Shown here piece after piece: positions 8,275 through 39,338 of a DNA stretch of 64,000 bases; position 1 is the stretch's first letter; every line of letters starts with the position of its first letter. The position numbers and the translations under genes are program-made. Under the pieces are notes generated by a model. The model did not search any database. It saw only the letters and a list, made by a program, of their open reading frames with translations, and was not told the origin of the DNA. The stretch is from a virus. Where the stretch lies: positions 1-64,000 of IMG/VR virus record IMGVR_UViG_3300044797_000094; one strand, written 5' to 3'.

Positions 8275-8505
8275 ATGGCGCAATCCAAAACAGAATTCGA
8301 CTTGCGAGTAGCGAGATTATTCAAGGCGTCTCAAAGGCTGCTTGGTTCTGATTTGACTGACAGAAATAAAAGGGCGTTTGCGGAAGACTTATTCGAGGTC
8401 TGCAAGAGCATCCTCAATCATGACTTCGTGGGGGGCGGAGATATTTCGATGAAATCGCTTCCGGCAAATTCGGAGGCAATTGTGAGCCCGGGCGATGAGC
8501 TATAA
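8275..8505 (+). CDS. Hypothetical protein
   Basis: ORF in operon context. Confidence 0.45.
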   Translation: MAQSKTEFDLRVARLFKASQRLLGSDLTDRNKRAFAEDLFEVCKSILNHDFVGGGDISMKSLPANSEAIVSPGDEL

Positions 8506-8887
8506 AGACGTCAAGATCAGTATTCCCCTCAGGGAAATCATAGCCATGAACGAATCCGTAAAAGCCACGCCGGAAATACGTCGGCGAATCAAACTGAAAT
8601 CAATCCTTGATCGCTGGTCGACCTGCACAATCAGCGTGGAAGACGCGGAAACAGAATTGAGCGATCTTCTGGCGTCGAAGGAACTCGGCCCGCTCGACGT
8701 CCAAAGCGGAAAACTGAAGATCACCTCCGAGCGTGGCATGGCGTTCGATACCATGGTTGAAATCAATGGCCAATCATTCGACTGGGGCGAAAAACTGACG
8801 CTGATCATTGAGGCCGGGATGAAAAATCGTATCCTGATCGAAGGATGCCCGGTTAATTTTGACGGTCCGAAAAAGGAACAATCGTGA
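8495..8887 (+). CDS. Hypothetical protein sharing a W[ST]xCTISxED motif with the ClpN protein
   Basis: LKSILDRWSTCTISVEDAETEL versus LRSLLTKWTACTISLEDFNTEM. Confidence 0.55.
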   Translation: MSYKDVKISIPLREIIAMNESVKATPEIRRRIKLKSILDRWSTCTISVEDAETELSDLLASKELGPLDVQSGKLKITSERGMAFDTMVEINGQSFDWGEKLTLIIEAGMKNRILIEGCPVNFDGPKKEQS

Positions 8888-10680: not shown

Positions 10681-10882
10681 TGGAACGTAAAGTCGGACCG
10701 ATGAGGATGCGGTGCAAAAGCCACGTTCTCCGCGATTTCCAGATGAAGCGGGCTTTGCCCAACGCCCCCCCCTGTTTCCCCTGATCTGAATTCACCGCGC
10801 TCGACTAGCTTTCGGCTTGCGATTGAGATTCAATCAGCGACAATGAAAACCGCCGCCGACTGGAACCGGCGACATCAATATT

Positions 10883-11179
10883 ATGAAGAGAACCGCGATG
10901 GTCGAACATATCCTAAAAATCAATGTGTCCGAATTGCAGGTCGTAAGACTGACATGCCGCCAGTGCAAGGCTACCGCTGAGATGAAGATCGATGCCCTGA
11001 CCGACCGGACGACGAAATGCACGTGCCCATTTTGCCAGAAGCCGTATTTGTACGGCGGAGATCGGGCAGGAGGGACGCCGTTTGAGGAATTGAGGCAGTC
11101 TCTGAAAAGTGTGCGAGAAGCTAATAACCTGGATATGGAGTTCGTGATTCCGACCGGTCAGGGCAAGAGCGAATCGTGA
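10883..11179 (+). CDS. Zn-ribbon protein
   Basis: CRQC...CPFC. Confidence 0.6.
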   Translation: MKRTAMVEHILKINVSELQVVRLTCRQCKATAEMKIDALTDRTTKCTCPFCQKPYLYGGDRAGGTPFEELRQSLKSVREANNLDMEFVIPTGQGKSES

Positions 11180-11440
11180 AAACGTTTCTGCCTCAAAACT
11201 ACCCCGGTTGCCTAAAAAGTCAGGGTTTGGAAGAGGTTTTAAGGCAAAGCCCGATCGTCAACCTGTGCAAGCCGCGATCAAGAACGCGCTAATGAAAAAC
11301 CGATGTCCATTAAATCTCGATGATACAAAAAAGGAATAATCATGTGCGGAATGGGATATTGGAACGGGGAAGGATTCAAGCCGGCTGAGGCACGAGCGAA
11401 AATCGCCTTTCTCGCGTTTCATGATGAAAAAGGGTCGACC

Positions 11441-12190
11441 ATGTATGAGAGCTGGACCGACAGATCCCGTAAAGTTATGCAATTGGCGAATCAAGAAGCC
11501 CGGCGATTCAACCACGAGTACATTGGCACCGAGCACATCTTGCTTGGCCTGGTCAAGGAAGGATGCGGCGTCGGGGCGAAGATTCTGGAAGGCCTTGGCG
11601 TCGATATGCAAAAGGTCCGATTTCAAACCGAGAAGATCGTCGGCTCGGCGCCTGATCACATAATCATTGGAAATCTTCCGTTTAATGAAGACGCGATGAC
11701 GGTGATTGATCAATCCGGAAGGCAAGCTTATGTCTTGAATCACAAATACGTCGGAACGGAACACATCCTTTTAGCTATCTCGTCGTGTCCGAGTTCGATC
11801 GCTTATAAGATCCTTGTGGCTCTCGGAGTGGTCGGAGAAACAATCCAGCGTAGCATCGGAGAGATCATGGAGGCAACTCCGGCGATGCCAGGCGAAATGA
11901 CAATCAAACTTCCCGAGTATTTTTCTACCATCCTGTCAAAAACAGAGCCCGTCGCAGTCGGAATCGCCGAACCGAGCGCGAAGAAAGCGTACGAATACGC
12001 AATGAAAGCGTGGAAACAAAAGCGGCTTCAAGATCTTCGCTCTCTTCTTACAAAATGGACCGCTTGCACAATCTCGCTTGAAGATTTCAATACCGAGATG
12101 GAAAAGCTGTACGAATGGATAGACATGGATGCGGCAATCAAGCTGCCGCAGAGCGTCGCTCCGCAATCTGACGTTACGAAAATCGACTGA
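11441..12190 (+). CDS. Stand-alone ClpC N-terminal (Clp repeat) domain protein, no AAA+ modules
   Basis: MYESWTDRSRKVMQLANQEARRFNHEYIGTEHILLGL and a second repeat HKYVGTEHILLA. Confidence 0.9.
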   Translation: MYESWTDRSRKVMQLANQEARRFNHEYIGTEHILLGLVKEGCGVGAKILEGLGVDMQKVRFQTEKIVGSAPDHIIIGNLPFNEDAMTVIDQSGRQAYVLNHKYVGTEHILLAISSCPSSIAYKILVALGVVGETIQRSIGEIMEATPAMPGEMTIKLPEYFSTILSKTEPVAVGIAEPSAKKAYEYAMKAWKQKRLQDLRSLLTKWTACTISLEDFNTEMEKLYEWIDMDAAIKLPQSVAPQSDVTKID

Positions 12191-12232
12191 ACTGATTATC
12201 GTCCGTGTCAACCCCGAAATCCGGAGAGAGAC

Positions 12233-15200
12233 ATGGGCAAGCGAGGTCGCAGGTTCCGTAAATCCAGGCAGCAGAACGACGAACGAGAAATCGTCGCGGA
12301 AGTTCCATCGATTCAGAAGTCCTATCACGTCGCGACTTCATCGACGAGCGCCGCTTTGGGGCCTGCCTTGGCGGGTGCCTATGTCGGTGGCGGCTGGATA
12401 AGTGACCACCGTGAAGAGGTGCGTCACTTCCGGCATTTCTCGTACGTCGCAATCCACCAGATCGCGCAGCAGTTGTCGTCAGCGACAGTGACGGCGTTCG
12501 CGGACGAAGATAATCAATGGGACAATCAGTCGCGTAGAAAGTCTCTGCGGGTGAAATTCGGCAGTCTCGATCGATATAAATCCATCTACGGAAAAGAGGA
12601 CGACACATCAACCAAGGCGTTAAATTCCAGTCATGCATTGATGAAGCTGCTGGCCAAGCCGAACCCGTGGGAGTCCGGATACGACTTTCGATATCGGCAA
12701 ACAATCCAAATCAGGCTCACTGGCGCATGCTACATTTGGAACGTGCCAAGTCAATTGCGAACGCCTGACGCTCCGAATGGCGTGCCGTGCCAGCGATTCG
12801 TCATCCCAACGGCGGCCGTCACGCCGATGATGCCAACGGCGGAGTTGCCCTATGGCGGATTTCTCGTTCAGCCGTATTGCTCTCGGTACGCTCCGATCGA
12901 CGAGGACAGCGGATATGTCCGTGGCTCACCTGGCTGGATGCGGCTTCTTGGCCGAGTCGTCGATGCCCGAGAAATCCAGAAGATCGGCTATCCTCATCCT
13001 TTGTGGCTCGATGACTGGCAGAGTCCAATTGCGGCCGGTGATGCGTGGGTCGATATGGAAGAGGCCGTAAATCGAGCGAGGACGGCAAGTACACTGAATG
13101 GCGTTGACCCGTCATTGGTCTGGGAGCTGCCGCCAAACATCAAATTGTCGCCAGACATGATGGACAGGACGCAATCGGCAATCCAGAAAAAGTATGGCGG
13201 TCCATATAATCAGAGTCGAGTTTTGGTGACGGAAAGCGGAACGAAAGTCACGCCAACTTCCGGCGTCCCGAAGGACATGTGCTATCCAGAGGGATTCCAG
13301 GACGTCAAAACGGCGATTCTCTCGCTTCATGGGACGCCGCCAGTCGCGGTCGCGATGCAAGAACCTGGGGCGTACGCGTCGTACATCGCGTCCCTGAAAG
13401 CGTGGAACCACGCGACGATTAATCCACTCTGCGAGAAATTTGGAGAATCCGACACGGCTCATCTCGCTCCATTCTTCGGGGAAGGTTTGACTGTTGAATA
13501 CGAACCAAAAAGTATCCAAGATCCGGACAACGATCTAAAGCTTTTGACGATCCTGGCATCCACTAAAAAGGTCATCAGAGTCAACGAGCTTCGCGCCAAA
13601 TGCGACATGGAGCCGCTGGAAGGACCGGAAGGCGATGCATTCGTCAATGACGACCCGGTTCCAGGAATGCCGCAAGCGAAGCCAAATGGCGTGAATTTGG
13701 GCCGTCCGGACGCGGAAGCGTTGAAGCCGATAGTCAAGCCCGCTGAACCGACCACGCCATTCGAACGCGACGACGGGAACAAGTCACTTTTGGCGGCATT
13801 GGAAGGATTCCGCGAAGAGGACGAGGAATTCGTCCAGCGAAAACTCGGATCGCTGATCGAGAAAGCGGTTGCGGCGAAGCTGAAATCGCTGGAGCCCGGC
13901 GAAGAACCGCGAAAGTACGCGTCGACTCAATTCAATCTGCCGGACGAACTGGCCGATCAAGTACGGAAAATGGGCCAGAGAATCGACCTTGACGACTTGG
14001 CGGAAGACGGACTGGAGGATGAGCCTCACGTGACAATCCTTTATGGACTCACGGAATCCAGCCCCCAATCCGTCAAGCGAGCGTTGTCGGGCTTCCCTGC
14101 TGGTCGGATAGAACTTGGAATGTCGTCTCTGTTCGCGGCGAACGGAACGGAAGCGAGTCGAGGCGGTCCACAATTCGACGTCCTGAAGCTAGACGTTGGC
14201 GGCGATTACATCCATCGAATCCACGATCGACTCGCCGACAAATGCGACTACGAAGTCAGTTGGCCGCTCTACGTGCCACACGTCACGATCGGATACCTAA
14301 GGCCCGGACGAGGCAGAAAATACGTCGGCATGACGGACGTCGAAGGCGAAACATTCCTTGCCGACAAAATGACGTTCTCGAATCAGCAAAAAGACGTGTC
14401 GGTGATTCGGCTGCAACCCCCAGTCAAATCCCGCCAGTCCATCATCGAGCGTCAATTGGCTCATTCCAACGGCAACGGACGAACGAATGAATGGCACGGA
14501 AAAGCGTACGATCCATCGGAGGCGAGGGATGAAAGCGGAGAATGGACGGGGGGGGCTTCGCAACCTGATTCTAAGAAGCCCAATAAGCCGTCAAAAAACG
14601 CTGCGATCTGCCAGATGACCGGGCTGCCGTTCGAAGGTCGCGGGAAGAACCATCCAAAGCTGCGAGAAGTGCTTGACGACGCGATGAAGGATGGCGCCAG
14701 GAATCAGGTGATTGAAGCGATTAAGGACGCTAAAAACCGTGGAACGAACAACATTGAGGATTTTGTCCGCATCGCCAACGAGGCGATTGGAAAAGGCAAG
14801 GAAGATCGACGTCAGGATCGCCGCGAGCAAGTCGAATTGGAGGATGATAGGCGTCGCGAATCACGGGAACGCGACGATCTAAATCGCAAACTACGCGCCG
14901 CTGGATATCGTTGGTCGAAAGAGGGAAATCAAAATTGGCGTGAAACGCCGGAGCAAACTCCGGAATCCCACTTCGAATCCAAATGGGTGCTTCGTAATCA
15001 TCAAGGGGATGTCGTTTCGCTTGATGATGCCAAAAAAGAAATAGCATCCAACGAAAAGTCACTCGGCATGTCAACAGGCGTCGGCGACGACGGCGGCTTC
15101 GCGGTCAAGCCGGAACTGCCGGGCGAACCAAGCAACGAACAGCTCAGAACCCTCTACGGAAACTGTCCGTTCTGTTCTGGCGAAGTCACAGGTCGCGATT

Positions 15201-16597
15201 CCGATCGAATGACTGACACGTGCGATCAAGGTCACTCCTATCCATCGAAGCTGTCAATATTCGATCGACCGTCCGAAGGCGACGTCGCAACAAGCGCTGT
15301 GAATGACGGTCCAATGGGGAACCTGAATGGATTCGCCGATCCATCTGAGAAATCCAACGATCTGATCGACAATACGGAATTCGGGGCGTGCCCTCTGTGC
15401 GGCCAAGACGCGATCATGAGGGAGCGGCGATGGTACGGAAATGTGCCGTATGACTCGTGTTGCAACGGGCACGAGTTCCCGGCTGGAGTCATCGCGACTG
15501 GTGTTCCAAAAGAAAAAACAGCCAAGGCGCATCTTCAGGCTTCACGCAAGTCCTCCGCCTCTGGAGGTCAGTGGATTACACTCAAGCCCCATGGTGGTAA
15601 TGAAGGCGGCTATCTGCATGTCATGATCGATGAGAGTGGCGAGATCCAATCCGGCCCGAAGGAAATGAGAGACAAGAAGCCGAACCAGATTGAATCGCAC
15701 CGTGAGGTCAAGCAGAAACAGAAGTCTCCGCAGAGTCCGCAAGTTGGCACTCCCGATAGCCAAACGGTATCTCAGTCGGAGCAAACAAAAAAAGAATACC
15801 ACGATAGGCTGAGCAATTTGGCATCATCGCCGGTGAAAAGCAGCAAGCCGCTCAGCGGTCATCGAAATCTCAACGAAACACACATCGTGGCGCTGAAAAA
15901 CGGTGACAAGGGAGTTTGGAAACCGGCGTCAGGAGAAACATCATTCGATCACAACGGAGAGCCGATTAGACCCAACATCCCCGCTGGAACACAGCATAAG
16001 AGGGAAGCGGCCGCCAGCGCCGTTGCCGACGCTATTGGACTTCATGATCTAGTCCCAGCCACAACGCTCCGGACGATGGAAAAGGGCGAGAAGAAAGAAA
16101 TCGGATCGCTGCAACATTTCTCCGAACATGGCATTCCGGCGCACGCGACCGCTCGTGACGCGAAATATGATGGCGATCGCGATCTGGCGAGAGCCGCCGC
16201 ATTCGATATTCTGACGTCGAACACCGATCGTCATTTGGGAAACTGGATGGTCACGCACGGGCTAAGTGCACCGAACGATCTGTCATCGGAAAATAAAAAA
16301 TACAATATTGACAAGGAGCATAAGCTCGTTTTGATTGATCACGGGCTGGCATTCCCAGAAAGCGGCGGGAATGGCCGCAGTGGATTAGTCAATATGGCTG
16401 AGCACAAAAAGCTTCCGGTGCCGAATGAAGTTCTAAAATGGGATTCAGCTTCGATCGACGAGGCAATGAAAAAAAACGGCATTGAACCGCGGGCCAGGAG
16501 ACTGGCTCTTGATCGCCTGTCGCAACTCCAGTCTCTTGCGAAAGATGGCAAGACATTCGCGGATGGTTTCAATCAGGACGTGATTCACAGCTATTGA
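12233..16597 (+). CDS. Portal polyprotein: HK97-like portal + 2H phosphoesterase + two Zn-ribbons + HipA/PI3-4K-like kinase
   Basis: Portal (aa ~1-480: LLAKPNP, IRVNELR), HxT motifs PHVTILYG and PHVTIGYL, two CPxC..C..GH motifs, kinase motifs VWKP, REAAA, DRHLGN, LIDHG. Confidence 0.9.
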   Translation: MGKRGRRFRKSRQQNDEREIVAEVPSIQKSYHVATSSTSAALGPALAGAYVGGGWISDHREEVRHFRHFSYVAIHQIAQQLSSATVTAFADEDNQWDNQSRRKSLRVKFGSLDRYKSIYGKEDDTSTKALNSSHALMKLLAKPNPWESGYDFRYRQTIQIRLTGACYIWNVPSQLRTPDAPNGVPCQRFVIPTAAVTPMMPTAELPYGGFLVQPYCSRYAPIDEDSGYVRGSPGWMRLLGRVVDAREIQKIGYPHPLWLDDWQSPIAAGDAWVDMEEAVNRARTASTLNGVDPSLVWELPPNIKLSPDMMDRTQSAIQKKYGGPYNQSRVLVTESGTKVTPTSGVPKDMCYPEGFQDVKTAILSLHGTPPVAVAMQEPGAYASYIASLKAWNHATINPLCEKFGESDTAHLAPFFGEGLTVEYEPKSIQDPDNDLKLLTILASTKKVIRVNELRAKCDMEPLEGPEGDAFVNDDPVPGMPQAKPNGVNLGRPDAEALKPIVKPAEPTTPFERDDGNKSLLAALEGFREEDEEFVQRKLGSLIEKAVAAKLKSLEPGEEPRKYASTQFNLPDELADQVRKMGQRIDLDDLAEDGLEDEPHVTILYGLTESSPQSVKRALSGFPAGRIELGMSSLFAANGTEASRGGPQFDVLKLDVGGDYIHRIHDRLADKCDYEVSWPLYVPHVTIGYLRPGRGRKYVGMTDVEGETFLADKMTFSNQQKDVSVIRLQPPVKSRQSIIERQLAHSNGNGRTNEWHGKAYDPSEARDESGEWTGGASQPDSKKPNKPSKNAAICQMTGLPFEGRGKNHPKLREVLDDAMKDGARNQVIEAIKDAKNRGTNNIEDFVRIANEAIGKGKEDRRQDRREQVELEDDRRRESRERDDLNRKLRAAGYRWSKEGNQNWRETPEQTPESHFESKWVLRNHQGDVVSLDDAKKEIASNEKSLGMSTGVGDDGGFAVKPELPGEPSNEQLRTLYGNCPFCSGEVTGRDSDRMTDTCDQGHSYPSKLSIFDRPSEGDVATSAVNDGPMGNLNGFADPSEKSNDLIDNTEFGACPLCGQDAIMRERRWYGNVPYDSCCNGHEFPAGVIATGVPKEKTAKAHLQASRKSSASGGQWITLKPHGGNEGGYLHVMIDESGEIQSGPKEMRDKKPNQIESHREVKQKQKSPQSPQVGTPDSQTVSQSEQTKKEYHDRLSNLASSPVKSSKPLSGHRNLNETHIVALKNGDKGVWKPASGETSFDHNGEPIRPNIPAGTQHKREAAASAVADAIGLHDLVPATTLRTMEKGEKKEIGSLQHFSEHGIPAHATARDAKYDGDRDLARAAAFDILTSNTDRHLGNWMVTHGLSAPNDLSSENKKYNIDKEHKLVLIDHGLAFPESGGNGRSGLVNMAEHKKLPVPNEVLKWDSASIDEAMKKNGIEPRARRLALDRLSQLQSLAKDGKTFADGFNQDVIHSY

Positions 16598-16617
16598 TCT
16601 GATGCATCGGGAATCAA

Positions 16618-18198
16618 ATGCAAATAATTCGAGTGTCAGGAAACATCGATGGCGAAGACGTCGATTTCGGCGACGTGTGCCTTGACGACGGCCGACTGCA
16701 CTGTCGCTCGTCGTCAGGTCTTGGCCGACGAGTTATGCAAAGCATTCTTGACGAGCCCGTCTACAGCCCTCGAGGCGACGTTACAGCAATTGAAAATCCC
16801 GAAGAATTCTTTCTGCGGCTGCCGACAACCTACCGATCGTACGCGTTGCGGGCTTACCCAATCGATGACGGCTCGGCAGATGCCGCCGAGAAGGCGTTAA
16901 AGAGGGACGTCACAGGAGAGGCAAGAGATCAAACTGGTGAATGGACCTCGGGAGGCGCTTCGACAAAGCCAAGCGTAACGGGAACTCCACGCGTTCCGAA
17001 GCCTCCGACATCGAAGCCATCAAAGAAACCAAATGCCCCGAAGATTGATGAGGATGACGAAGAATCCGGCGGTCGATTCGCAAAGCCTCCCACGCAACGC
17101 GGAGAGATGGTCTATGCCAAGCGAGTCGGCACTGGCAAGAACGTGAAGATCGTTTTGTCCGACGGATCGACTGCGCCGGAGCACATGCAAAAACTGGCCG
17201 GAAGTATTCCGCCGGACTGGAGTGAAGTCAAGATCGCAAAAGATCCGTCAATGGACGTGCTCGTTACAGCAAGAGACCCAAACGGCAATTCGAAGTTGGT
17301 TTACAACGACGCCTACGAAAAACGGAATGAGGCGATTAAGTTTGTGCGTGCGGCGGATATGGTCGCGAATCATGATGTGATTTTGAAAGAGTTCGCCGAA
17401 GATCGACTCAAGTCGGAAACGAGAGAACAAGCGGACTGTGCTCGATTAATGTTGGCCCAGGCGACGAGACCCGGCAGCGAATCTGACAACAAGGGCGTCA
17501 GCAAATACTTCGGCAAATCATTGACTCCAGATGATGTTGTTCTAACGAAAAGCGACAATCCCAAAATCGCAATCATCGGCAAGCAAACCGACGCGCAAAA
17601 GAAAGCGGCCGCCAGCGGTAAAGATGTCGTCGCAATCAATGTCAATGGATCGCTCGTCGTCATCAAGGATAAGAAAACGAAGGCGGAATTATTGAAACGA
17701 GCCAACGAAGGCGGCGACTTGCACGACTCGACGTACTGGCTGAAATCGCACGGCGCGACGACGCTGGAGGGACGACATGTCGTTGAAGCTCCGGATGGGA
17801 CGCGGCTTAAATTTGTCGGAAAAGAAGGCGTCTTCCACGATCACCTGGTCAAAGATCCGGAAGTCGCGAAGATGCTTTTGGAACGCAAAGCGAAATCCGG
17901 CGACACAGGACAGTTATTCAACACGAACGAGATCAAGCTGCGAGATTACGTCAAGACAAAAGACGGCGGCGACTTCCTCTCGAAAGATCTGCGGACCGCT
18001 CGGGCGAACATGATTGCGATCGACGAAATCAATAAGATTCCGGCCCCGAAAACAGACAAGGAATACAAAGCCAAGCGTGATCTTGTGGGGCAGCGGGTGG
18101 CGCATGTGCTCGGAAACGAAATCGCACAGAGCCTAAAGTCATACATTTCGCCGGAATTGTTCTCAGATTGGAGAATCAACGCGGGCGTGCAGGGATGA
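16618..18198 (+). CDS. DNA topoisomerase IB (bacterial/poxviral type) with an N-terminal extension
   Basis: IPPDW N-domain; catalytic set R (ATRPG), GATTL, K (FVGK), R (KDLRT), N (LGN), Y (KSYI). Confidence 0.9.
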   Translation: MQIIRVSGNIDGEDVDFGDVCLDDGRLHCRSSSGLGRRVMQSILDEPVYSPRGDVTAIENPEEFFLRLPTTYRSYALRAYPIDDGSADAAEKALKRDVTGEARDQTGEWTSGGASTKPSVTGTPRVPKPPTSKPSKKPNAPKIDEDDEESGGRFAKPPTQRGEMVYAKRVGTGKNVKIVLSDGSTAPEHMQKLAGSIPPDWSEVKIAKDPSMDVLVTARDPNGNSKLVYNDAYEKRNEAIKFVRAADMVANHDVILKEFAEDRLKSETREQADCARLMLAQATRPGSESDNKGVSKYFGKSLTPDDVVLTKSDNPKIAIIGKQTDAQKKAAASGKDVVAINVNGSLVVIKDKKTKAELLKRANEGGDLHDSTYWLKSHGATTLEGRHVVEAPDGTRLKFVGKEGVFHDHLVKDPEVAKMLLERKAKSGDTGQLFNTNEIKLRDYVKTKDGGDFLSKDLRTARANMIAIDEINKIPAPKTDKEYKAKRDLVGQRVAHVLGNEIAQSLKSYISPELFSDWRINAGVQG

Positions 18199-18960
18199 AT
18201 AGCCTGTCTGTGGGCCATTTCCTTTCAAGACGGTGATGGAGCGTGCTGTAGGAAATATTATGAATCTCGCACCATTCAATGAGCGTTTTAGATTCTCCGT
18301 TGATCGTAATTGAATCATGTGTTCGAAATAACCTTCGCTTGGTTGACAATGTTTTTTCAACAGACCATCCACGGCGCAGGCGAAGGGAAATAGTTTTCGC
18401 TGTTGTGCCGAGCACTTCGGCCCACTCAGCAATGCAGAGCGATTTACCGGCATGTTTGAGAATGTGATTTGTGCGGCAGTTTCACGCCTGTTGAAGATCT
18501 GTGGCCCAGCGGACATTACCAGGCTCGTAGTTGCCACGCTGATCCGGAAATCTATCAAGAGAATGCTTCGGTGATGGCGCGCGTCCCATGTCATCCAGGA
18601 AATTCTGGAACGAATTATTCCAGTGCCCGCAAACAATAATGCCGTCCGCGCCATAACCTTTCATTGTTTTGTCTTTGCATCGTCGTCGCATCGCCAACCA
18701 GCACCTATATTCGAAGCGGTGCGTGTATCCGAGACGCCGCCGAGAGACTGCCGCTCTGCGTGAGCCGCACTTCAGGCAGCCGGAGGTCTTTCCTGATGTT
18801 AAATTGCCGGAGAACACCTCTTTCGCGGTACCGCAGGGCAGGCGCATTTGCAGTTCCAATATTTGAGGTATTTACGTCGCCCGAAAAACGATTCAACTGT
18901 CCAATTGCCAAATACTTTGCCAATTAAATTCGTATTGAATAAAGCCGGGTCAGATTTCAT
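18176..18960 (-). pseudogene. Disrupted HNH homing endonuclease
   Basis: One continuous protein can be rebuilt from three ORF fragments. A 5-bp CCTGC duplication near 18832-18842 shifts the frame, and an in-frame TGA at 18482-18484 lies in 'QQA*NCRTN'. Motifs SLDR, NYEPGNVRWAT. Confidence 0.85.
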
Positions 18961-19142
18961 CACGGCGACTTCCTTCAGTGCTTGGGAATGCGAAAATGGT
19001 CTCCCAGAAGTATAACAAAAATAAGACAGTCTTACATAAATCCAGAGCTGTTCTCGTCGTGGTTGACCGCCGTCACTCATTCCTGATCGACGATTGATTT
19101 AGTCGCCCCGCATCATTTCCGAATAAATTCTCAAAATTCTGT

Positions 19143-19189
19143 AAATCGTCATCAATTTCCGTTGACAACAATCCGATATCTGATATCAT
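19143..19189 (+). promoter_or_regulatory. 16-bp operator plus sigma70 promoter
   Basis: AAATCGTCATCAATTT (19143-19158), TTGACA (19162-19167), TATCAT (19184-19189). Confidence 0.7.
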
Positions 19190-19232
19190 GTCATCAGCAT
19201 GGTCGGCACGGCCCACAAAAAGGAACAAGAAA

Positions 19233-19481
19233 ATGGCGACAATCACCAGCGCACCAGAAAACGAACTAGATCTAGCCATCACTCGCGTTGAAGCGGGTAG
19301 TTACACAATCGTCTCCGCTGGGGGCGGCGCCGCGATCTATCTAATGCGCGGCGGACGGCAGATAGAGTTCTCTCGCGTGATTGACACTGATTGTGGCGTG
19401 ACATTTATCGTGCCACAACACGTCAACGAATATTGGAGTGGGATCTCTGATATGTCAGTTGAGAGGTCTGGCGGAGATTGA
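19233..19481 (+). CDS. Hypothetical protein
   Basis: AGGA RBS, first gene after the promoter. Confidence 0.55.
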   Translation: MATITSAPENELDLAITRVEAGSYTIVSAGGGAAIYLMRGGRQIEFSRVIDTDCGVTFIVPQHVNEYWSGISDMSVERSGGD

Positions 19482-19542
19482 CTTTTTAGCTATTTTTTTA
19501 CTTTCCCCCCTCGGCCAACACTGAGCACGAGTCGGCCGAGGA

Positions 19543-19941
19543 ATGGTACGATACTTTCCGTGCCCTCTTTGCCATACCGAGTGGCGCGTCGCCGACATGG
19601 TGCGGCGAGCTGACGCTGCGTATCAGGAAGATATGCGACGCGCTGGACATGACGCACTCCTGGAGTGCGATGGAGCGACGTTTGAGGGCCTCGCGGACGC
19701 GGAAGCTACTCGCATCGAGGGCATCATCCGTCGCGGCGAGCGGCCAAACTGCACATGCGTGATCGTGTGCGGTCAGCGCCATTACGGCGATGCTGACGAG
19801 CGTATGACGGTCCGACGCCGCGCTATCACAGTACTGCGCAGACTCGCAAGCGATGGACATTCATCGCTCGACAAGTGTTCCGATGAGCAATTACTCGCTG
19901 AGATCACGCGACGCGGATTAATGCCGATGGCTGATGTGTAA
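19543..19941 (+). CDS. Hypothetical protein (CPLC motif)
   Basis: ORF preceded by a GC hairpin. Confidence 0.5.
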   Translation: MVRYFPCPLCHTEWRVADMVRRADAAYQEDMRRAGHDALLECDGATFEGLADAEATRIEGIIRRGERPNCTCVIVCGQRHYGDADERMTVRRRAITVLRRLASDGHSSLDKCSDEQLLAEITRRGLMPMADV

Positions 19942-20078
19942 CAGTGAATACCACCCAACTCGAAAACGGAGAGAGAGAATGAGCGATGCGACACCTACGT
20001 GTCGCCGGACGGGGGGTTAACTTTCATGGGCCGAGAGCCCGATGGCGAAAAACGCGAAGGTTCGCGAGGGGAATTTAT

Positions 20079-20546
20079 ATGAAAATTTATTGTGTAAAAT
20101 GTAACGGCGTGAATAATAACGGATCACTCCACTGCGATGAGGCGACGTCCACCGATGGATGGCATCCATCGTTGCCGCAGGCAATCCGGGATCTTGTAGA
20201 GACCGCAGAGCTGTGCGGCAGTGATTCGGATCAACTACTCTCTCTCGTCTGCCGCGATGTGTCGCTCGGCGTGCTTGACGACGTGGAGGGGCAGGATTTT
20301 GCGGCACTGCTGCGGATTCAGGACGAGATTCTCAAAATCGTTCTCTCATCGGCAACTGTCCCAGATGAATCCGACGACGAACTGTGGTCGGGAACCGGAA
20401 AAGAGGCTGCAAAAATGGAAGTCCTGCATACCGCCTCAGGATATATGCCTGCCTCTGACCCGTCCTCGGACGGGTCCACCGAATATCTCGATAGCGACGA
20501 TGCTTGGGTCGCTGAATTTGAGGCGAATGGCGGCTGTGACAATTAA
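20079..20546 (+). CDS. Acidic hypothetical protein
   Basis: GAGGGG RBS before ATG 20079. Confidence 0.5.
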   Translation: MKIYCVKCNGVNNNGSLHCDEATSTDGWHPSLPQAIRDLVETAELCGSDSDQLLSLVCRDVSLGVLDDVEGQDFAALLRIQDEILKIVLSSATVPDESDDELWSGTGKEAAKMEVLHTASGYMPASDPSSDGSTEYLDSDDAWVAEFEANGGCDN

Positions 20547-20660
20547 TTGCGGCGATCCGGAGAGAGGTTTCGCCGGGGCTTACGCCTGAATTTCGTCTGT
20601 CTGACACGCGGCTGCTTGTGCCCGAAACCAGTGACAGAAATCTAAAACGCGAGCACCGCG

Positions 20661-21122
20661 ATGATTAATCTCGCCAATGCCGTCCGAGATCAGGACTATT
20701 GTTTGATCTCTGAATTTATGCAGGCAGAGTTTAAAGTGTCGCTAAATGCGGACGACATACGCCTAATTCTTGACATCCATTATCCCATCAACACGGAACC
20801 GGACGATTACCGGTTCCGGGATTGGACAAACGGAACGTGGGCCATATTCTTTCGGAATCGATTGAATCAACATGGGCTTCTCATCCTCGAAGCGAACAAA
20901 AAGCCGCGTGATATCCGCGTGGCTTGCGAACTCAGCATCGGCTTCGTGGAGATTGTTGAGACGGAAGAAATGAAACAAAGGCTGCGAAACGAGGCGATCA
21001 TTGAGGACCAAGCAACCCCTCGAACAAAATTGACCGCCAGCAATCCACAGATCGTGAATCCGGTTGATCGGATTGCGCGTCGTGTCACAAAGGCAAGATG
21101 CGAGACTCATGATGACAAATAA
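20661..21122 (+). CDS. Hypothetical protein
   Basis: ORF in operon context. Confidence 0.5.
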   Translation: MINLANAVRDQDYCLISEFMQAEFKVSLNADDIRLILDIHYPINTEPDDYRFRDWTNGTWAIFFRNRLNQHGLLILEANKKPRDIRVACELSIGFVEIVETEEMKQRLRNEAIIEDQATPRTKLTASNPQIVNPVDRIARRVTKARCETHDDK

Positions 21123-21303
21123 AACGCGAGACAGGACTCCAATTCTTCTGCGAATTCCTCCAGAGATCTATGTGCCATTGCGGGAACAGGCTGATCAGAA
21201 TAATGTCAGCATTCAGCAAGAGGCGTTGCAAATCATCGGCGAGAGATTCGGCATTAATGAAATCCCGAAGCGGAAGCCGGGTCGACAGTCGCAGACGGCC
21301 TAA
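21109..21303 (+). CDS. Arc/ribbon-helix-helix DNA-binding protein
   Basis: ILLRIPPEIY..LREQA...NVSIQQEALQII pattern with a basic KRKPGR tail. Confidence 0.7.
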   Translation: MMTNKTRDRTPILLRIPPEIYVPLREQADQNNVSIQQEALQIIGERFGINEIPKRKPGRQSQTA

Positions 21304-21321
21304 ACCAGAAACGGAGCAAAC

Positions 21322-21588
21322 ATGGCCAAAATCGGAGACATGCCGGGCGACGTCTATTTTGGAAGTCCAGATAAACCGCTCCCGAATTGGCGAGAACATA
21401 TCGACGCCAACGAACCCGACGACATTGACGAGTTCACTCCGTTGAGCCCCGAAGCCCGAGAGAGACTCGCGGCAAAGCTCGGTATTAGTCCCGATGACGA
21501 AATCTTTGACGAGCCTGATCCCGGAGAACCGACGTCGCTCTACAGCGGAGACGGCGAGATTCATGAGCAGGGTGACATCCATTCGTGA
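21322..21588 (+). CDS. Small, very acidic protein
   Basis: GGAG RBS; D/E-rich. Confidence 0.6.
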   Translation: MAKIGDMPGDVYFGSPDKPLPNWREHIDANEPDDIDEFTPLSPEARERLAAKLGISPDDEIFDEPDPGEPTSLYSGDGEIHEQGDIHS

Positions 21589-21622
21589 AATTGTTGACGA
21601 ATTGCTTGACACAGGGTAGGAT
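21588..21622 (+). promoter_or_regulatory. 16-bp operator overlapping the -35 box of the RHH gene promoter
   Basis: AAATTGTTGACGAATT (21588-21603); TTGACG-17 nt-TAGGAT. Confidence 0.65.
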
Positions 21623-21656
21623 GCCATCTGGCAGTTAAAATCATCGGAATCCATCA

Positions 21657-21890
21657 ATGAGCGAAGACGCGAAAAACAAAATCATCCATGTCGGCGTCAA
21701 AATGCCGATCAACATCTACGAAGCGGTGATGGCGAAGGCCAAATCGTGCGGCGTCAGTTGTCAGGCGATAATTCTTCGTGTGCTCTCTCGATCGACGAAA
21801 ACGAAATATGAGCCGCCGGTTGTCGGCAGGCCGAAGAAAGTCCCGGAACGAGGTTCAAGCCATGCGAACGAAACAAGCGGCGGAGACTGA
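21657..21890 (+). CDS. Arc/ribbon-helix-helix DNA-binding protein
   Basis: VGVKMPINIYEAVMAKA...GVSCQAIILRVL with a GRPKK tail. Confidence 0.7.
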   Translation: MSEDAKNKIIHVGVKMPINIYEAVMAKAKSCGVSCQAIILRVLSRSTKTKYEPPVVGRPKKVPERGSSHANETSGGD

Positions 21891-22359
21891 TTGCCAGATT
21901 CGTTGGATGATTCTTCGAGACATGCCAAATATTCTGGCGATTGAAAAACGTGCGTTCGACTTTCCGTGGGATGAAGCCGACTTCAAAACAGCCCTCAAGC
22001 GGCGGTCATGTATCGGGATGGTCGCGGAGGAACACGAAGCGATCGTCGGTTATTTCGTTTACGATTTGTGTGATGGATTTATTCACGTGCTCAATCTGGC
22101 TGTCGATCCGACTCATGCTCGGCGTGGAATCGGAACAAAACTCATCACTCGGTTGATTGAAAAGATCTCGCAGCAACGGCGAACGCGGATTTGCATGGAA
22201 GTTCGAGAGAGCAATCTTGGCGCTCAGTTGTTCTTGAAAAATCAAGGATTCGTCGCTCAATGCATCGTGAAGAATCATTATTGCGACACAGGCGAAGAAT
22301 CCTACAGATTTGAGTACGAGCTGCCAGAATGCGGGATTCCGACGTTTGTTAAACGGTAA
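21862..22359 (+). CDS. rimI: RimI-like GNAT N-acetyltransferase
   Basis: IRWM..RDM...IEK..F.FPW; VLNLAV.P...RRGIG; EVRESNLGAQLF. Confidence 0.85.
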   Translation: MRTKQAAETDCQIRWMILRDMPNILAIEKRAFDFPWDEADFKTALKRRSCIGMVAEEHEAIVGYFVYDLCDGFIHVLNLAVDPTHARRGIGTKLITRLIEKISQQRRTRICMEVRESNLGAQLFLKNQGFVAQCIVKNHYCDTGEESYRFEYELPECGIPTFVKR

Positions 22360-22413
22360 TTATTTGGTCCGAGATCGAGCGAAGCGGCGTGACTTGTGGG
22401 ACGTCCCTGCATA

Positions 22414-23319
22414 ATGGCTGAGTTGCCAAATAGATCCGATCTCGAAGCCCGATTCGCGAAACGGTTCGGCAGAATCGCTAGACGGCACATGCGTGAATTC
22501 CGCCAGCTTCTCGGCGACCCCCCGAACATTGACAACGTTCCTGAAGCCTTCTACGAAAAGATGCAGCGTGAAGTGGACGCGGAAACCTACGCGATTCTGC
22601 TGCTGATCTTCGACGATTCGGCGTTGCTTCACGGATGGAGCGGTCCTGATCAAGCAATGGCGTCATACGGCTGGGCGAAACAGAGAGCCGATGCGTTCTC
22701 TCAATCGTGGGCCGAGTCGACGCGAACGAAGTTGGAAAAAGGCTTTGAGAGACTGGAGGGACCAATTGCTCAACGCGAAGAAACCACAGAAGAGGCTAGA
22801 GAGTCGAATCGCACGATCCCCGCCGAACGAAAACCAGTCACTCAAAAAGAGGTCGATGAACTAATCGATTCGACATGGTCCCCGAAAACGATCGAAAGAT
22901 GGGCGGTCGACGAGACGACGACGGCGCAACACGCCGGCGGTGAAGCTGGCATTGAAGCGACGGTCGGCCTGAACGAAAACGACATTTGGCGTTGCGATTG
23001 GCGGCATGACAACGTGTGCGAGGAATGCTCGCCGCTTGACGAAAAGCCACGTTCTGTTTGGTCGGCAAAGTTCCCAGACGGTCCGCCGTCTCCACATTTT
23101 TTTTGCCGATGCTGGATTCAATATGCCCCAATTGGTGCGAATAAAAGCGCGGCGAGGAAAAGTCTTGAATCAAAAGCATTCGTCGATGCCTGGCACCGCA
23201 CAATCCCCGAAGCCGCCGAATGGCGTGCATATTGCCGAGAGAACGGCGTTGATGTCGAGAATCAAGCGAAATTCAAAGCATTCAATGTCAGCGAACCTCG
23301 GGCTTCAGATGGCGAATAG
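22414..23319 (+). CDS. MuF-like minor head (head morphogenesis) protein
   Basis: W...D.VCEEC..LD...PP.PHFFCRC motif; located between portal and protease. Confidence 0.75.
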   Translation: MAELPNRSDLEARFAKRFGRIARRHMREFRQLLGDPPNIDNVPEAFYEKMQREVDAETYAILLLIFDDSALLHGWSGPDQAMASYGWAKQRADAFSQSWAESTRTKLEKGFERLEGPIAQREETTEEARESNRTIPAERKPVTQKEVDELIDSTWSPKTIERWAVDETTTAQHAGGEAGIEATVGLNENDIWRCDWRHDNVCEECSPLDEKPRSVWSAKFPDGPPSPHFFCRCWIQYAPIGANKSAARKSLESKAFVDAWHRTIPEAAEWRAYCRENGVDVENQAKFKAFNVSEPRASDGE

Positions 23320-36458: not shown

Positions 36459-37895
36459 ATGAGTGCGGGCCAATCTTTACCGAGACGTAGAACGGCAGGT
36501 TGGCTGTACTCCATCAAGGCGGAAGGCATCTCGCCGAATTCCTTGATGCTCGACCATGTGGATTCAGTTCCGCCTTACGTCGATCAACAGAAAATGAGCG
36601 TTCGGGCCAGAATCTCGAACGCGGCGATTGATCGAGTCGGCGACGTGCTGGTTCCACGTGGATGCCAGGTCGAAAATTACAGACTCAATCCTGTCGTACT
36701 GTGGAACCACGGACTCGATCCATCGCTCACCAAACCGCTCGGAATGTCTGAAGACGAAGATGGCAATCTTTCTATTGAGATTACTGACGACGACGTATTT
36801 GCAACGTGCTTTTTTAGCCAAAAAGACGCCGATGCCGCTCAGTTTTTCTCTCTCATCGCAGAAAAAATCATCAGGGCCACAAGCGTTCGGGAAACGCCCG
36901 TGGAAGGGTTTTCGAAAGACGTTTGGCGGAATGGTCAACGCGTTAAGCAGGTTGGTCGGTGGGATCTCGAAGAGTGGTCGTTTTGTTCTGTTGGGGTCAA
37001 TCCAGAGGCTATCGCGAAATGCCTTTCTCGTAATCGACTTGACGGAAGGCGAATCTCGGAACCGATTTACAAATCTCTTTCAGCGGTCGCTCCCAAGCCA
37101 CAAAAACCCGGCATCGGCTTTGATTTGAAGGAAACGCCAATGGTCGAAAAACTTCGCATGCCGAACGACATGGACGACGACGGGGAAGAGAAGGATGTCA
37201 CAAAAATGAACGGCCCAACCGACGACAACGACAAAAAAGACCCCGGAGAAGTTCCCGCCGACCAAGCACGTGGAACCGACGTGGAAGACGATTCGGACGA
37301 TGACGAGGACACGACGCAAATCGCTCCTGAGCCCGAGCCCGGCGGAGACCCGAGCAAGCAACCGTATGGCTCGCAAGTCATCAAATGCCTCCACGGTGCC
37401 CTCAAGTCCGCCTGCAAGGCGACGAATGAATGCCTCGGACCGCAATTGGAACACCAAGGCGTCAAAGACGACGTCGGAGCGGTCAATGATGTAATGAAGG
37501 GCCAGATGAAAGCGTTGGAAGGTTCCCACCTGAAGCACTATCCAGCAATGAAATGCGACCTGAAGTCCGACGACATGGATGGCGACGATGACGAAGAATC
37601 CGGCGAAGACTCGACCGGCGATTCCGACATGAAGGCGTTTCTGGCCGGAGCGACAGGACGTCAACATCAGATCTTCGGTGTGGCTCATCGCCTGAAAGAA
37701 CTGTCGAAGTCAAAATCATTGACAGTCGCCGAACGCCGAATGCTCAAGTCCGACATCGAACATCTTGATTGGTTGATGGACCAAGCCAAATCCCAGGCCA
37801 AGGCAATCGCCAAAGCGGCGAGAAAGAAGCCGAGCACGAACGAGGCTCAACGCCTCAAAGCCCTCGAAGACCGATTGAACAAAGCCCTGTCCTGA
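36459..37895 (+). CDS. HK97-type prohead protease with a long acidic/scaffold-like C-terminal extension
   Basis: DRVGDVL, NPVVLWNH, ATSV, LEEWSFCSVGVNPEA. Confidence 0.9.
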   Translation: MSAGQSLPRRRTAGWLYSIKAEGISPNSLMLDHVDSVPPYVDQQKMSVRARISNAAIDRVGDVLVPRGCQVENYRLNPVVLWNHGLDPSLTKPLGMSEDEDGNLSIEITDDDVFATCFFSQKDADAAQFFSLIAEKIIRATSVRETPVEGFSKDVWRNGQRVKQVGRWDLEEWSFCSVGVNPEAIAKCLSRNRLDGRRISEPIYKSLSAVAPKPQKPGIGFDLKETPMVEKLRMPNDMDDDGEEKDVTKMNGPTDDNDKKDPGEVPADQARGTDVEDDSDDDEDTTQIAPEPEPGGDPSKQPYGSQVIKCLHGALKSACKATNECLGPQLEHQGVKDDVGAVNDVMKGQMKALEGSHLKHYPAMKCDLKSDDMDGDDDEESGEDSTGDSDMKAFLAGATGRQHQIFGVAHRLKELSKSKSLTVAERRMLKSDIEHLDWLMDQAKSQAKAIAKAARKKPSTNEAQRLKALEDRLNKALS

Positions 37896-37952: not shown

Positions 37953-39338
37953 ATGGCTGATCTCGCAACCCTCGAAACTCGCGTCGAAGACCTCGTCAAG
38001 AAGAACGAGGCATTGGCGTCGGAAAATAAGTCCTTTAAGTCGCAAATCGATAAGCTTGCGGAAACTCCAAATCATGCCGGAATCCATGCGGCCCCCGGCG
38101 TCACATCGTCCTTCGACGACAACGACGTCGAATCCGCCACGCTCGTCTACGATTTCACGTCGTCGTATCGCGGGAATATGGCGACCCAGACCGGCGGACA
38201 AACTCGATCAGACCGGCATACGGCGATGAAGTCGATCTGGAAAACTCTGAAATCCAGTGGATATCAGCGATGCGGCGCGACGGGATCAGGCTTCAAGAGC
38301 TTTAAGGATTTCGTGCTCCAGGGACTCGAAGACAACGGGCGCACTCAGGGCTTCCGCGACAACTACAAAAAGCACATGGATCCTGTCTTCAAGACAATTC
38401 AGGGGATGTCCGAATCCATCGGCACTGACGGTGGATTTGGCGTGATTCCTGAATTCAACCTGAAGATCCATGAGCACGTCTACGCAAATAATCTTTTCGC
38501 CCGCACTGACGGCTATACCGTTTCCGGCAACAACATGACGTTTCTGGCGAATGCTGAAACGAGCCGAAAAACGGGCTTCCGGGCTGGCGGCCTGCAAGCC
38601 TATTGGACGGGTGAAGGTTCTTCGATCACCCCGAGCAAGCCGACGATCCGCGAAATCCAGATGAAGCTGCAAAAGCTGGCCGTCGTGGTCTATCTGACGG
38701 ATGAGCTTCTCAAGGACAATGCGATTGCCCTGGAGCAATACGTCACCCGCAAGGTGTCGGACGAATTCGCGTGGATGATGGGCAACAGCCTGTTCAACGG
38801 AACCGGCGCTGGTCAGCCGCTCGGAATCATCAACTGCCCGAGTCTCCTGGTCATCGCGGCGGTCGGAGGCCAATCAACGCTCACGATCGTCAGCGGCAAC
38901 ATCATCACGATGCAAAACCGCCTGTTCGCTCCCTATATGGAAAATGCAAGCTGGTTCGTGAATCAAGACACGATTCAACAGTTGATGCAACTCACGTTGG
39001 CTACTGGAACGTATTCCGGTCAATTGGTCTACATGCCGCCGACAGGGTTGGCGGGATTGCCTTACGGAACGCTGGGTGGTCGGCCTGTCGAGCCGATCGA
39101 ATTCGCGGCGAGCCTCACGACTCAGGGCGATATCACATTGGCTGATTTGGGTCAAATCATCTCGATCACGAAAGGTGGAATTCAGCAGGCGGTTTCCATG
39201 CATGTGGAATTCCTGACCGATCAGATGGCGCTGAGATTCACGATGCGACTCAATGCTCAACCGTGGGAGAACAGCCCGATCACTCCGGCAAACGGCACGA
39301 ACACTCAGTCCAGCTTCATTCAATTGGCTTCGCGATAA
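37953..39338 (+). CDS. Major capsid protein (HK97 fold)
   Basis: GTDGGF.IPE, W.GEG, KL.....TDELL.D, G.G.GQPLGI, F.TDQ.A.R...R. Confidence 0.95.
   Translation: MADLATLETRVEDLVKKNEALASENKSFKSQIDKLAETPNHAGIHAAPGVTSSFDDNDVESATLVYDFTSSYRGNMATQTGGQTRSDRHTAMKSIWKTLKSSGYQRCGATGSGFKSFKDFVLQGLEDNGRTQGFRDNYKKHMDPVFKTIQGMSESIGTDGGFGVIPEFNLKIHEHVYANNLFARTDGYTVSGNNMTFLANAETSRKTGFRAGGLQAYWTGEGSSITPSKPTIREIQMKLQKLAVVVYLTDELLKDNAIALEQYVTRKVSDEFAWMMGNSLFNGTGAGQPLGIINCPSLLVIAAVGGQSTLTIVSGNIITMQNRLFAPYMENASWFVNQDTIQQLMQLTLATGTYSGQLVYMPPTGLAGLPYGTLGGRPVEPIEFAASLTTQGDITLADLGQIISITKGGIQQAVSMHVEFLTDQMALRFTMRLNAQPWENSPITPANGTNTQSSFIQLASR

Follow-up and report, generated by a model that had tools for sequence, protein, structure and literature searches.

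The locus analyzed here is a 64-kb window (the whole stretch of DNA that was examined) of the 76,387-nt record of an uncultured virus, IMGVR_UViG_3300044797_000094. Its head region encodes a polyvalent portal protein, a topoisomerase IB (TopoIB) protein and a MuF-like head protein, and each of the three carries a copy of one short peptide, hereafter called the tag. An earlier note, made from the sequence alone, had quoted these three peptides and proposed that the prohead protease cuts at K|A or K|S and leaves tag-led effectors inside the head. The translations were rechecked, and the three peptides are exactly as quoted. On the basis of current results, the tag is a genuine shared element that leads cargo modules of head-associated proteins, both here and in thousands of other proteins, whereas the K-[AS] enrichment supposed for the portal extension could not be observed. 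The features concerned are as follows:

12233..16597, + strand: polyvalent portal protein of 1454 aa, with portal domain, 2H-like domain, tag plus inserted module, Zn ribbons and a PI3/4-kinase-like end
14501..14554, + strand: tag copy 1, full motif with Glu at +7 (portal aa 757-774), which opens a 185-aa insertion
14501..15055, + strand: inserted cassette of tag, Pro/Lys linker and helical module (portal aa 757-941)
16618..18198, + strand: TopoIB protein, with a short N-terminal part, tag, Pro/Lys linker and TopoIB catalytic core
16891..16956, + strand: tag copy 2, a 'DV[ST]G-E-A-R-D' variant (topoisomerase aa 92-113)
22396..23319, + strand: MuF-like head protein without cargo
23275..23319, + strand: tag copy 3, shortened, reading K-A-F-N-V-S-E-P-R-A-S-D-G-E and then TAG at the Trp position

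In a six-frame scan of the window, E[AP]R[DA]x(2-3)GEW gave two matches, which are the portal and topoisomerase copies, and the looser E[AP]Rx(2-5)GE gave three, the third being the MuF end. A degenerate DNA pattern matched twice on the forward strand of the whole record and never on the reverse strand, and its backwards control did not match at all. Both full copies lead into GGAS, a Pro/Lys-rich linker and a further module, as had been claimed. The statement that each copy follows K-A is true of the portal and MuF copies (K-A at -6/-5, with columns numbered from the core Glu), but the topoisomerase copy has K-R at -6/-5 and K-A at -9/-8. The variant seen in this copy is also present at viral loci, for example preceding EARDARGRWT in L048. 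The MuF stop codon is TAG at 23317-23319, a single base from TGG, and it stands at the Trp codon of the other two copies. Read-through of this stop was considered and rejected: the window contains no tRNA genes and the in-frame continuation bears no resemblance to the T-x-G-G of the tag, so the TAG is not taken as recoding. Glu occupies +7 in all three window copies (14540-14542, 16939-16941 and 23314-23316), where most tags have R/K; elsewhere it was found in 8 of 132 viral instances and in 28 of 265 tags in the top profile matches (both sets are described below), and the closest MuF relatives have Lys. The common Glu may reflect a concerted change within one genome.

Domain searches supported the gene assignments. 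The portal open reading frame (ORF) matched Phage_portal in Pfam over residues 124-456 (E=3.3e-26), with PHROG portal matches as well, PI3_PI4_kinase over residues 1273-1380 (E=1.4e-7) and, below the curated cut-off, the 2H-like family 2_5_RNA_ligase2 over residues 593-690 (E=2.4e-4). Thus, portal, 2H-like and PI3/4-kinase-like matches lie in one ORF, which gives it the two or more unrelated effector-type domains of a polyvalent protein, the 2H match being below cut-off. The topoisomerase assignment comes from Topoisom_I in Pfam (residues 376-501, E=3.3e-8). The MuF-like protein matched Phage_Mu_F only at E=0.042 and is called MuF-like on account of its homologs, 4 of 21 of which (at 43-47% identity) carry a precomputed PF04233, and the family aligns throughout.

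Beyond the window, the consensus of the tag is [KR]-x-[FY]-[DN]-P-x-E-[PA]-R-D-x-x-G-[KR]-W-T-x-G-G-G, often preceded by a helix. A DNA pattern for E-[PA]-R(CGN)-D-x-x-G-x-W-T was found at no fewer than 120 viral loci, with 144 matches among those listed, and removal of 12 duplicate contexts left 132 unique instances. Columns that the pattern leaves free were conserved in these 132: F/Y at -4 in 92, D/N at -3 in 79, P at -2 in 76, D/N/S at -1 in 106, R/K at +7 in 108, and G at +11, +12 and +13 in 104, 99 and 76, respectively. Residue counts called family-like below exclude 15 instances with a flank score below 4 and therefore refer to 117. Across the viral collection as a whole, a codon-reversed control matched 87 loci, and each of the 80 that were listed had a single match, whereas the real pattern had two to four matches each at 18 loci (our own count, among the matches listed). 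A profile of the tag (36 columns, 109 instances), the check suggested by the earlier note for listing attached domains, was run against 1.84 billion proteins and retrieved 2,260 cluster representatives at E<=1e-3, 352 of them at E<=1e-10, with up to 8 matched stretches per protein. In the best 150 of the 2,260, the median tag spacing was 253 aa; a regular expression recovered 264 usable tags in 110 of these proteins and none in 40, an undercount, since HPRDxxGKF, QPRD and EDRD variants escape it. One might suppose that the three window peptides resemble each other by chance or through low complexity, and the MuF copy, taken alone, is indeed short and incomplete. However, the window scans, the controls, the MuF relatives described below, the conserved columns and the spread of the profile all argue against chance, and this explanation is already refuted, with a probability that we regard as negligible.

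The tag appeared to be absent from the resources consulted. No Pfam family accounts for it (upstream and downstream stretches of the viral instances were scanned), and NCBIfam gave no match for six tag-bearing locus proteins or for the TopoIB and MuF proteins of the window, the three NCBIfam matches of the portal lying outside the tag. Searches of the PDB returned chance partial matches to acetylcholinesterase only, and no chain covers the tag. No paper naming the tag was found in the main texts that made up the literature searched; the supplementary alignments of Iyer et al. might show it. A predicted model of the 36-aa profile from AlphaFold2 (AF2) had a mean pLDDT of 80.9, with a helix at residues 2-14, an extended stretch and an Arg..Trp bridge, which should be taken lightly for so short a peptide. 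Other junction peptides, W-x-x-Y-x-G-P-R-G-G-x-G-W-K-N and E-x-H-P-R-D-x-x-G-K-F-T-G-G-G, stand in the place of the tag in the TopoIB homologs P0179 and P0180 and in P0278, P0279, P0257 and P0260; they may be relatives of it.

With respect to position, the tag was always N-terminal of variable cargo, either after portal, MuF or other modules or as the opening of stand-alone genes adjacent to portal genes; further copies open the cargo added to protease-capsid polyproteins or belong to chromosomal toxin-immunity pairs. In this respect it resembles the pre-toxin junctions, where a conserved peptide stands immediately ahead of a hypervariable cassette of toxin or cargo. Within the 340 residues downstream of 124 tags, Pfam identified TopoIB (6), DUF7178 (6), ART-PolyVal (5), Zeta toxin (2), MuF (2) and GNAT (2), and single cases of InPase, alpha/beta hydrolase, histidine phosphatase, NUDIX, ParB_N and the S78 and XkdF proteases; most of these stretches had no Pfam match. 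The 340 residues upstream of 87 tags contained MuF (5), four portal families (8 in total), DUF7178, DUF2213, InPase, S78, 2H and Acb1. Neighbors of leader-type tagged genes (20 loci) included 13 matches over four portal-related families, S78 (4), terminases, MuF (2) and capsid (2). Among tags near the N-terminus, some directly follow the initiator Met (Met at -6 in 8 of the 117 family-like instances) and others stand behind an amphipathic helix of 15-35 residues. In the window, all three copies are either internal or C-terminal. TopoIB was also a recurrent cargo of head proteins in its own right: 17 of 99 homologs (P0176-P0273) contain a portal or MuF family (our own count from precomputed Pfam), and other homologs carry 2H, InPase, NUDIX or Zeta domains.

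The MuF relatives illustrate cargo swapping behind a constant tag. When 16 homologs (43-60% identical) were aligned, nine had the full motif, one a degenerate copy and six no cargo at the end, and in each of the nine the motif is followed by at least 100 residues of unrelated cargo. Full tag and cargo occupy the aligned position of the window copy in P0004 (57% identical) and P0006, and lie earlier, directly behind the MuF core, in the other seven. P0008 and L124 have K-A-F-N-V-S-E-P-R-T-E-D-G-K-W-T, the complete form of the window variant, and then a GNAT cargo. The window protein has no variable C-terminal toxin after MuF and stops inside the tag. Because its tag is cut short by TAG and its relatives have full tag and cargo, the window MuF appears to keep an empty cargo slot, and its tag, as judged from the alignment, would be a remnant left by loss of the MuF cargo. 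A GNAT gene lies upstream of the window MuF gene; the possibility that it is a copy detached from the P0008 GNAT cargo was considered and rejected, as no similarity could be observed. In several relatives (P0007-P0010), the MuF core is separated by tag and cargo from a conserved C-terminal helix, W-[YF]-R-x-I-P-x-A-A-E-W-R-A-Y; other relatives have the tag behind this helix, and the L123 MuF (10013-12607) has two tags, one in each place. A search of viral contigs for MuF relatives found none with a single-protein query and three loci with an alignment query.

Similar polymorphism could be seen in the portal, which was compared with those of two related phages, L123 and L124 (alignment A6). Behind the portal domain of all three phages, two conserved Lys-Ser/Thr junctions (K517 and K551) flank a conserved helix, and the cargo behind K551 is 2H-like in the window and inorganic-pyrophosphatase-like in L123 and L124 (read by eye). 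The 185-residue insertion, which starts with K|A-Y-D-P-S-E-A-R-D (tag copy 1) and ends before a K-S-L-G-M-S..G.DGGF.V block, is present in the window only: it is placed between ERQLAH..NG and the invariant KSLGMS and is missing from the portals of the two related phages. The module behind its tag had no Pfam family at the curated cut-off, and a protein atlas placed it in unnamed clusters only. The terminal cargo is kinase-like in the window, TopoIB after the tag-like H-D-V-S-G-E-N-R-D-H-G-K-F in L123, and an HExxH domain after E-S-R-A-S-D-G-K-W-T in L124; the TopoIB of the window is a separate gene that carries its own tag. One further candidate copy in the window portal comes from the same alignment:

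15530..15583, + strand: possible degenerate tag before the C-terminal cargo (portal aa 1100-1117), weak and seen in alignment A6 only

Its G-Q-W aligns with the G-K-W of the L124 terminal-cargo tag and, in L123, with the tag-like peptide that precedes TopoIB. A peptide G-G-Q-W-I-T-L-K-P-H-G-G..Y-L-H-V-M-I-D-E-S-G lies at 15557-15640, ahead of the kinase-like portal end.

Cargo polymorphism behind a constant tag was thus seen both in the MuF relatives and in the portals of three related phages. Such hypervariability among close relatives would also suit a tag that acts as a homology block for recombinational cargo swapping, or as a self-cleaving Asp/Asn-Pro site, in either case with no binding partner, and many copies do have D/N at -3 and then Pro at -2 (79 and 76 of the 132, as given above). 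However, conservation is at the peptide level: third-base identity at four-fold sites between loci was 0.42, where tag composition alone predicts 0.35. Synonymous sites are thus mostly free to vary, and selection acts on the peptide rather than on the DNA. Moreover, the 'DV[ST][DG]' and 'YSED' variants lack Asp/Asn-Pro and keep the core E-x-R-D-x-x-G-x-W-T, and a peptide of ~16 residues is unlikely to catalyze its own cleavage. We regard this explanation as improbable.

The interpretation that we favor, with about even confidence, is that the tag is a portable leader of swappable, delivered cargo (effector or toxin) cassettes, which protease cuts expose in polyproteins; phages would thus probably carry tag-led enzyme or toxin modules in their heads. 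The leader often begins with an amphipathic helix, followed by [FY]-[DN]-P-x-E-[PA]-R-D-x-x-G-[KR]-W-T (for which a tight turn is predicted), a flexible Gly-rich linker, which is Pro/Lys-rich in this phage, and the cargo. Here it opens the 185-residue portal insertion, the TopoIB cargo and the empty slot at the MuF end. Cargo would enter the procapsid fused to, or alongside, the portal, MuF or protease-capsid precursor; the prohead protease would then cut close ahead of the tag (in this lineage, after Lys), so that the released cargo would bear the tag at its free N-terminus, as a handle. This handle might serve delivery (positioning, retention or threading out with the DNA) via some conserved partner.

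The window has several further features, some of which bear on the proposed cutting:

5419-6951: large terminase (TerL)
15056..15118, + strand: portal mimic (aa 942-962) of the presumed maturation region of the capsid protein, K942|S943
36459..37895, + strand: prohead protease (aa ~51-190), recognized by a jackhmmer link, with a K[AS]-rich scaffold-like extension
37953..39338, + strand: HK97-fold major capsid protein (MCP; Phage_capsid, E=2.2e-40, Pfam)
38391-38456, + strand: presumed capsid maturation region around K147/T148, the cut position being predicted from sequence

The window thus encodes TerL, a portal, a MuF-like protein, a protease and an HK97-fold capsid protein, which is the head-module setting of polyvalent proteins. 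The protease gene had no Pfam match, and jackhmmer tied residues 51-190 of its product to a domain of seven protease-capsid polyproteins (aa 328-458 in that of L015, which has a precomputed PF04586 and the JGI name HK97-family prohead protease). The PDB matches of the capsid protein did not include HK97. Directly 5' of the portal gene, 11342-12190 encodes a 282-aa protein with two Clp_N repeats (E=2.8e-25), whose C-terminal segment resembles the end of ORF 8495-8887, as judged by eye from the translations.

In phage HK97, the gp4 protease reportedly cuts gp5 after Lys103 and before Ser104. Cutting at K|A or K|S in the window found partial support: a Lys precedes the tag in this lineage, the portal mimics the capsid protein and K[AS] is enriched in the protease extension, but the portal extension showed no such enrichment. 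Portal residues 931-962 aligned with MCP residues 136-168, in the N-arm region (BLASTP, 15 of 33 identical, E=1e-4 for a single pairwise comparison), and the K, S, L, G, M, S and G.DGGF.V columns of this mimic are invariant in the three phages. The match is the strongest hint of handling of the portal polyprotein by the prohead protease. The density of K-[AS] in the protease extension, asserted earlier, was borne out by 13 occurrences versus 4.8 expected, a number reached in 1 of 2000 shuffles. The dipeptide was also nominally enriched in the capsid delta region (5 versus 2.3) and did not occur in the mature capsid part. Lys at -6 and a small residue at -5 precede the tag in all 9 tagged MuF relatives and in the window portal and MuF copies, and the topoisomerase copy has Lys at -6 and Arg at -5.

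These data would also fit a narrower role, in which the tag is a recognition element of the prohead protease on the primed side of the cleavage site and does nothing after the cut; N-terminal copies would then be relics of cassette mobility or would let cargo ride the protease into the procapsid. In family-like viral tags, a basic residue was found at -6 and -5 at 30-31%, about twice the ~15% further upstream, and the residue at -6 or -5 among the 264 tags was K/R in 180, acidic in 51 and other in 33. Of 45 proteins with at least three tags, 36 had a uniform class of this pre-tag residue, versus 11.3 in shuffles, and none of 5000 shuffles reached 36. The counts of K/R and of uniform proteins, together with Met at -6 in 8 of the 117, also speak for the upstream cut of the reading favored above. 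In addition, S78 proteases occur in the same polypeptides and neighborhoods as the tag, and the conservation of the tag greatly exceeds that of capsid or portal surfaces, as might be expected if it fitted a conserved active-site cleft.

The protease-capsid polyproteins, however, do not fit such a role easily. Fusions of prohead protease, scaffold and capsid were found at loci L015, L062, L089, L083, L084, L009 and L095, a minority of them with tag-led extra cargo at the N-terminus. The family had 1,576 matches, the best 120 of which (P0274-P0393) were examined; alignment A7 excludes P0285, P0287, P0323 and P0347. Among these 120, none of the 98 basic forms (<900 aa) had a tag, whereas 11 of the 22 extended forms had a tag by the regular expression and 6 more had variant tags. 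The tag lies in the added N-terminal part and not at the junction of cargo and protease, where the cut would be needed, and in 5 of the 11 it is within ~20 residues of the N-terminus. Similarly, 45 of the 132 viral tags are within 60 residues of an upstream stop. With a tag at the extreme N-terminus there is almost nothing upstream to remove, which argues that its job lies after assembly or outside the capsid altogether. Since the polyprotein is the capsid subunit itself, the tag is also hardly needed there for encapsidation. Considering further that AF2 gave no sign of docking in cis and that chromosomal toxins are tagged with no head genes among the neighbor families listed, pure protease recognition seems to us rather unlikely.

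For the bacterial genomes, 10 of 29 family-like tag proteins were scanned for domains and the neighbors of 16 of the 29 loci were examined. These chromosomal copies (L127-L237) have an N-terminal leader of the form N-[FY]-N-P-D-E-P-R-D-x-H-G-R-W-T. Six of the 10 scanned proteins, mostly from alphaproteobacterial metagenome-assembled genomes, end in toxin domains of nuclease or peptidase type: CDI_toxin_EC869_like in three, Tox-REase-5 in two and Peptidase_M91 in one. Neighbors were ordinary chromosomal genes and, in two cases, Imm52. Such copies might indicate that the tag is a general secretion or trafficking leader of polymorphic toxins, whose partner is a bacterial export route or a target-cell factor, and that phage polyvalent proteins merely share these toxin cassettes; the tag is conserved in hosts from several phyla, as might be expected if its partner were a conserved cellular one. 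On the other hand, family-like flanks were found in 111 of 132 viral instances versus 29 of 120 bacterial-genome matches, among which chance matches dominate; the commonest fused or neighboring partners are portal, MuF and prohead protease; and no secretion-system genes were seen beside the chromosomal copies among the neighbors of the 16 loci. The chromosomal copies may also be remnants of phage cassettes, an origin that Iyer et al. (PMC5512222) propose for context-free polyvalent proteins. A general secretion leader is, on balance, unlikely. The chromosomal copies themselves could be domesticated phage cassettes, or be loaded in trans into some particle, or reflect a more general delivery route.

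A number of observations weigh against a leader of head-delivered cargo. First, the tag is far from universal on such cargo. The profile found it in only 6 of the 99 TopoIB relatives, so it is optional; the other 93 lack it, many of them being fused to portal or MuF, and most modules of the window portal polyprotein have no tag either. A tblastn search with a 57-aa tag segment against 50,697 records of cultured phages gave no match at E<=10. The window TopoIB protein also had no match among cultured phage records, and a three-tag polyprotein matched cultured phages through its cargo domains only. Second, in the portal extension K[AS] occurs 11 times versus 11.0 expected from shuffles, and the surroundings of these sites are no less hydrophobic than those of other Lys (permutation p=0.29); the idea that K-[AS] punctuates portal linkers is thus only partly upheld, with no support from count or surroundings, but K517, K551 and K942 are conserved in the two related phages. 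The uniform pre-tag class within proteins could reflect repeat ancestry instead of protease specificity. Third, in an AF2 model of a 970-residue tag-protease-capsid polyprotein, residues 1-40 had a pLDDT of 27-48 and only the R-D-x-x-G-R core reached 50 or more. The tag was of low confidence in this modeling with head domains in cis, a check that the earlier note had suggested, and no docking onto the protease or capsid domains was indicated (judged by per-residue confidence only), so such docking is not upheld; the models fit a flexible leader with a small local turn. Finally, no phage head family was present among the 25 neighbor families listed, of 118, at the 16 chromosomal loci. Tagged toxins among ordinary chromosomal genes imply that the partner of the tag need not be a head component, and a capsid-only explanation does not predict tags on chromosomal toxin-immunity pairs.

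The tag system belongs with phenomena already described, namely polyvalent head proteins, MuF toxins and capsid-targeting peptides. Short conserved peptides N-terminal to hypervariable toxin cassettes are familiar from polymorphic toxins, for example the pre-toxin junction motifs VENN of CdiA and DPxGL of Rhs. The tag shares this position and also occurs on chromosomal toxins with immunity genes; it differs in sequence, in the flexible Gly-rich linker behind it and in being often at the very N-terminus. As in HK97 maturation, the window has an HK97-fold capsid protein, an S78-like protease, Lys plus a small residue at conserved junctions and the K-S-L-G-M-S..GGF portal mimic, whereas the cut sites proposed here are predicted from sequence and the portal extension shows no statistical excess of K[AS]. 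Iyer, Burroughs, Anand, de Souza and Aravind (2017; PMC5512222) described multidomain effectors fused to portal or MuF, including 2H-MuF/portal fusions, and predicted that they are packaged and injected; the window portal is of this kind, and the main text of that paper gives no junction or leader motif and mentions topoisomerase only in its reference list. Nudix domains joined to MuF, to portal and to the capsid-processing serine peptidase have likewise been described (PMC9503650). Jamet et al. (2017; PMC5576092) reported MuF polymorphic toxins of temperate phages, in which a variable toxin forms the C-terminal part behind MuF, a layout that 9 of the 16 MuF relatives here share; its main text has no demarcating peptide, and the window MuF has lost its cargo and keeps a shortened tag. 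Capsid targeting sequences of T4 IPIII and P1 DarB are also short N-terminal peptides on head-internal, injected proteins, and the DarB peptide is sufficient for loading a reporter into heads. These sequences are phage-specific, whereas the tag is one family across thousands of proteins. The tag may also be internal or repeated, and some proteins that bear it are themselves fusions with head components.

Comparative genomics has revealed polyvalent head proteins and MuF toxins, but not the way in which their modules are set apart, freed and delivered. A peptide that opens cassettes in at least 2,260 protein clusters provides a handle for predicting module boundaries and lets phage-delivered effectors be listed, including the recurrent TopoIB cargo. 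It is also conceivable, although we consider it fairly doubtful, that the tag is a universal portable 'ticket' recognized by a conserved HK97-type head component, such that any protein bearing it is loaded and injected, including toxins encoded elsewhere on the chromosome and loaded into phage or gene-transfer-agent heads. If that were true, it would represent one natural sequence code for virion protein delivery, common to thousands of phages. Were the tag sufficient for loading, it would serve generally as a means of placing proteins in phage heads; otherwise it would still be the first common 'punctuation mark' of polyvalent head proteins.

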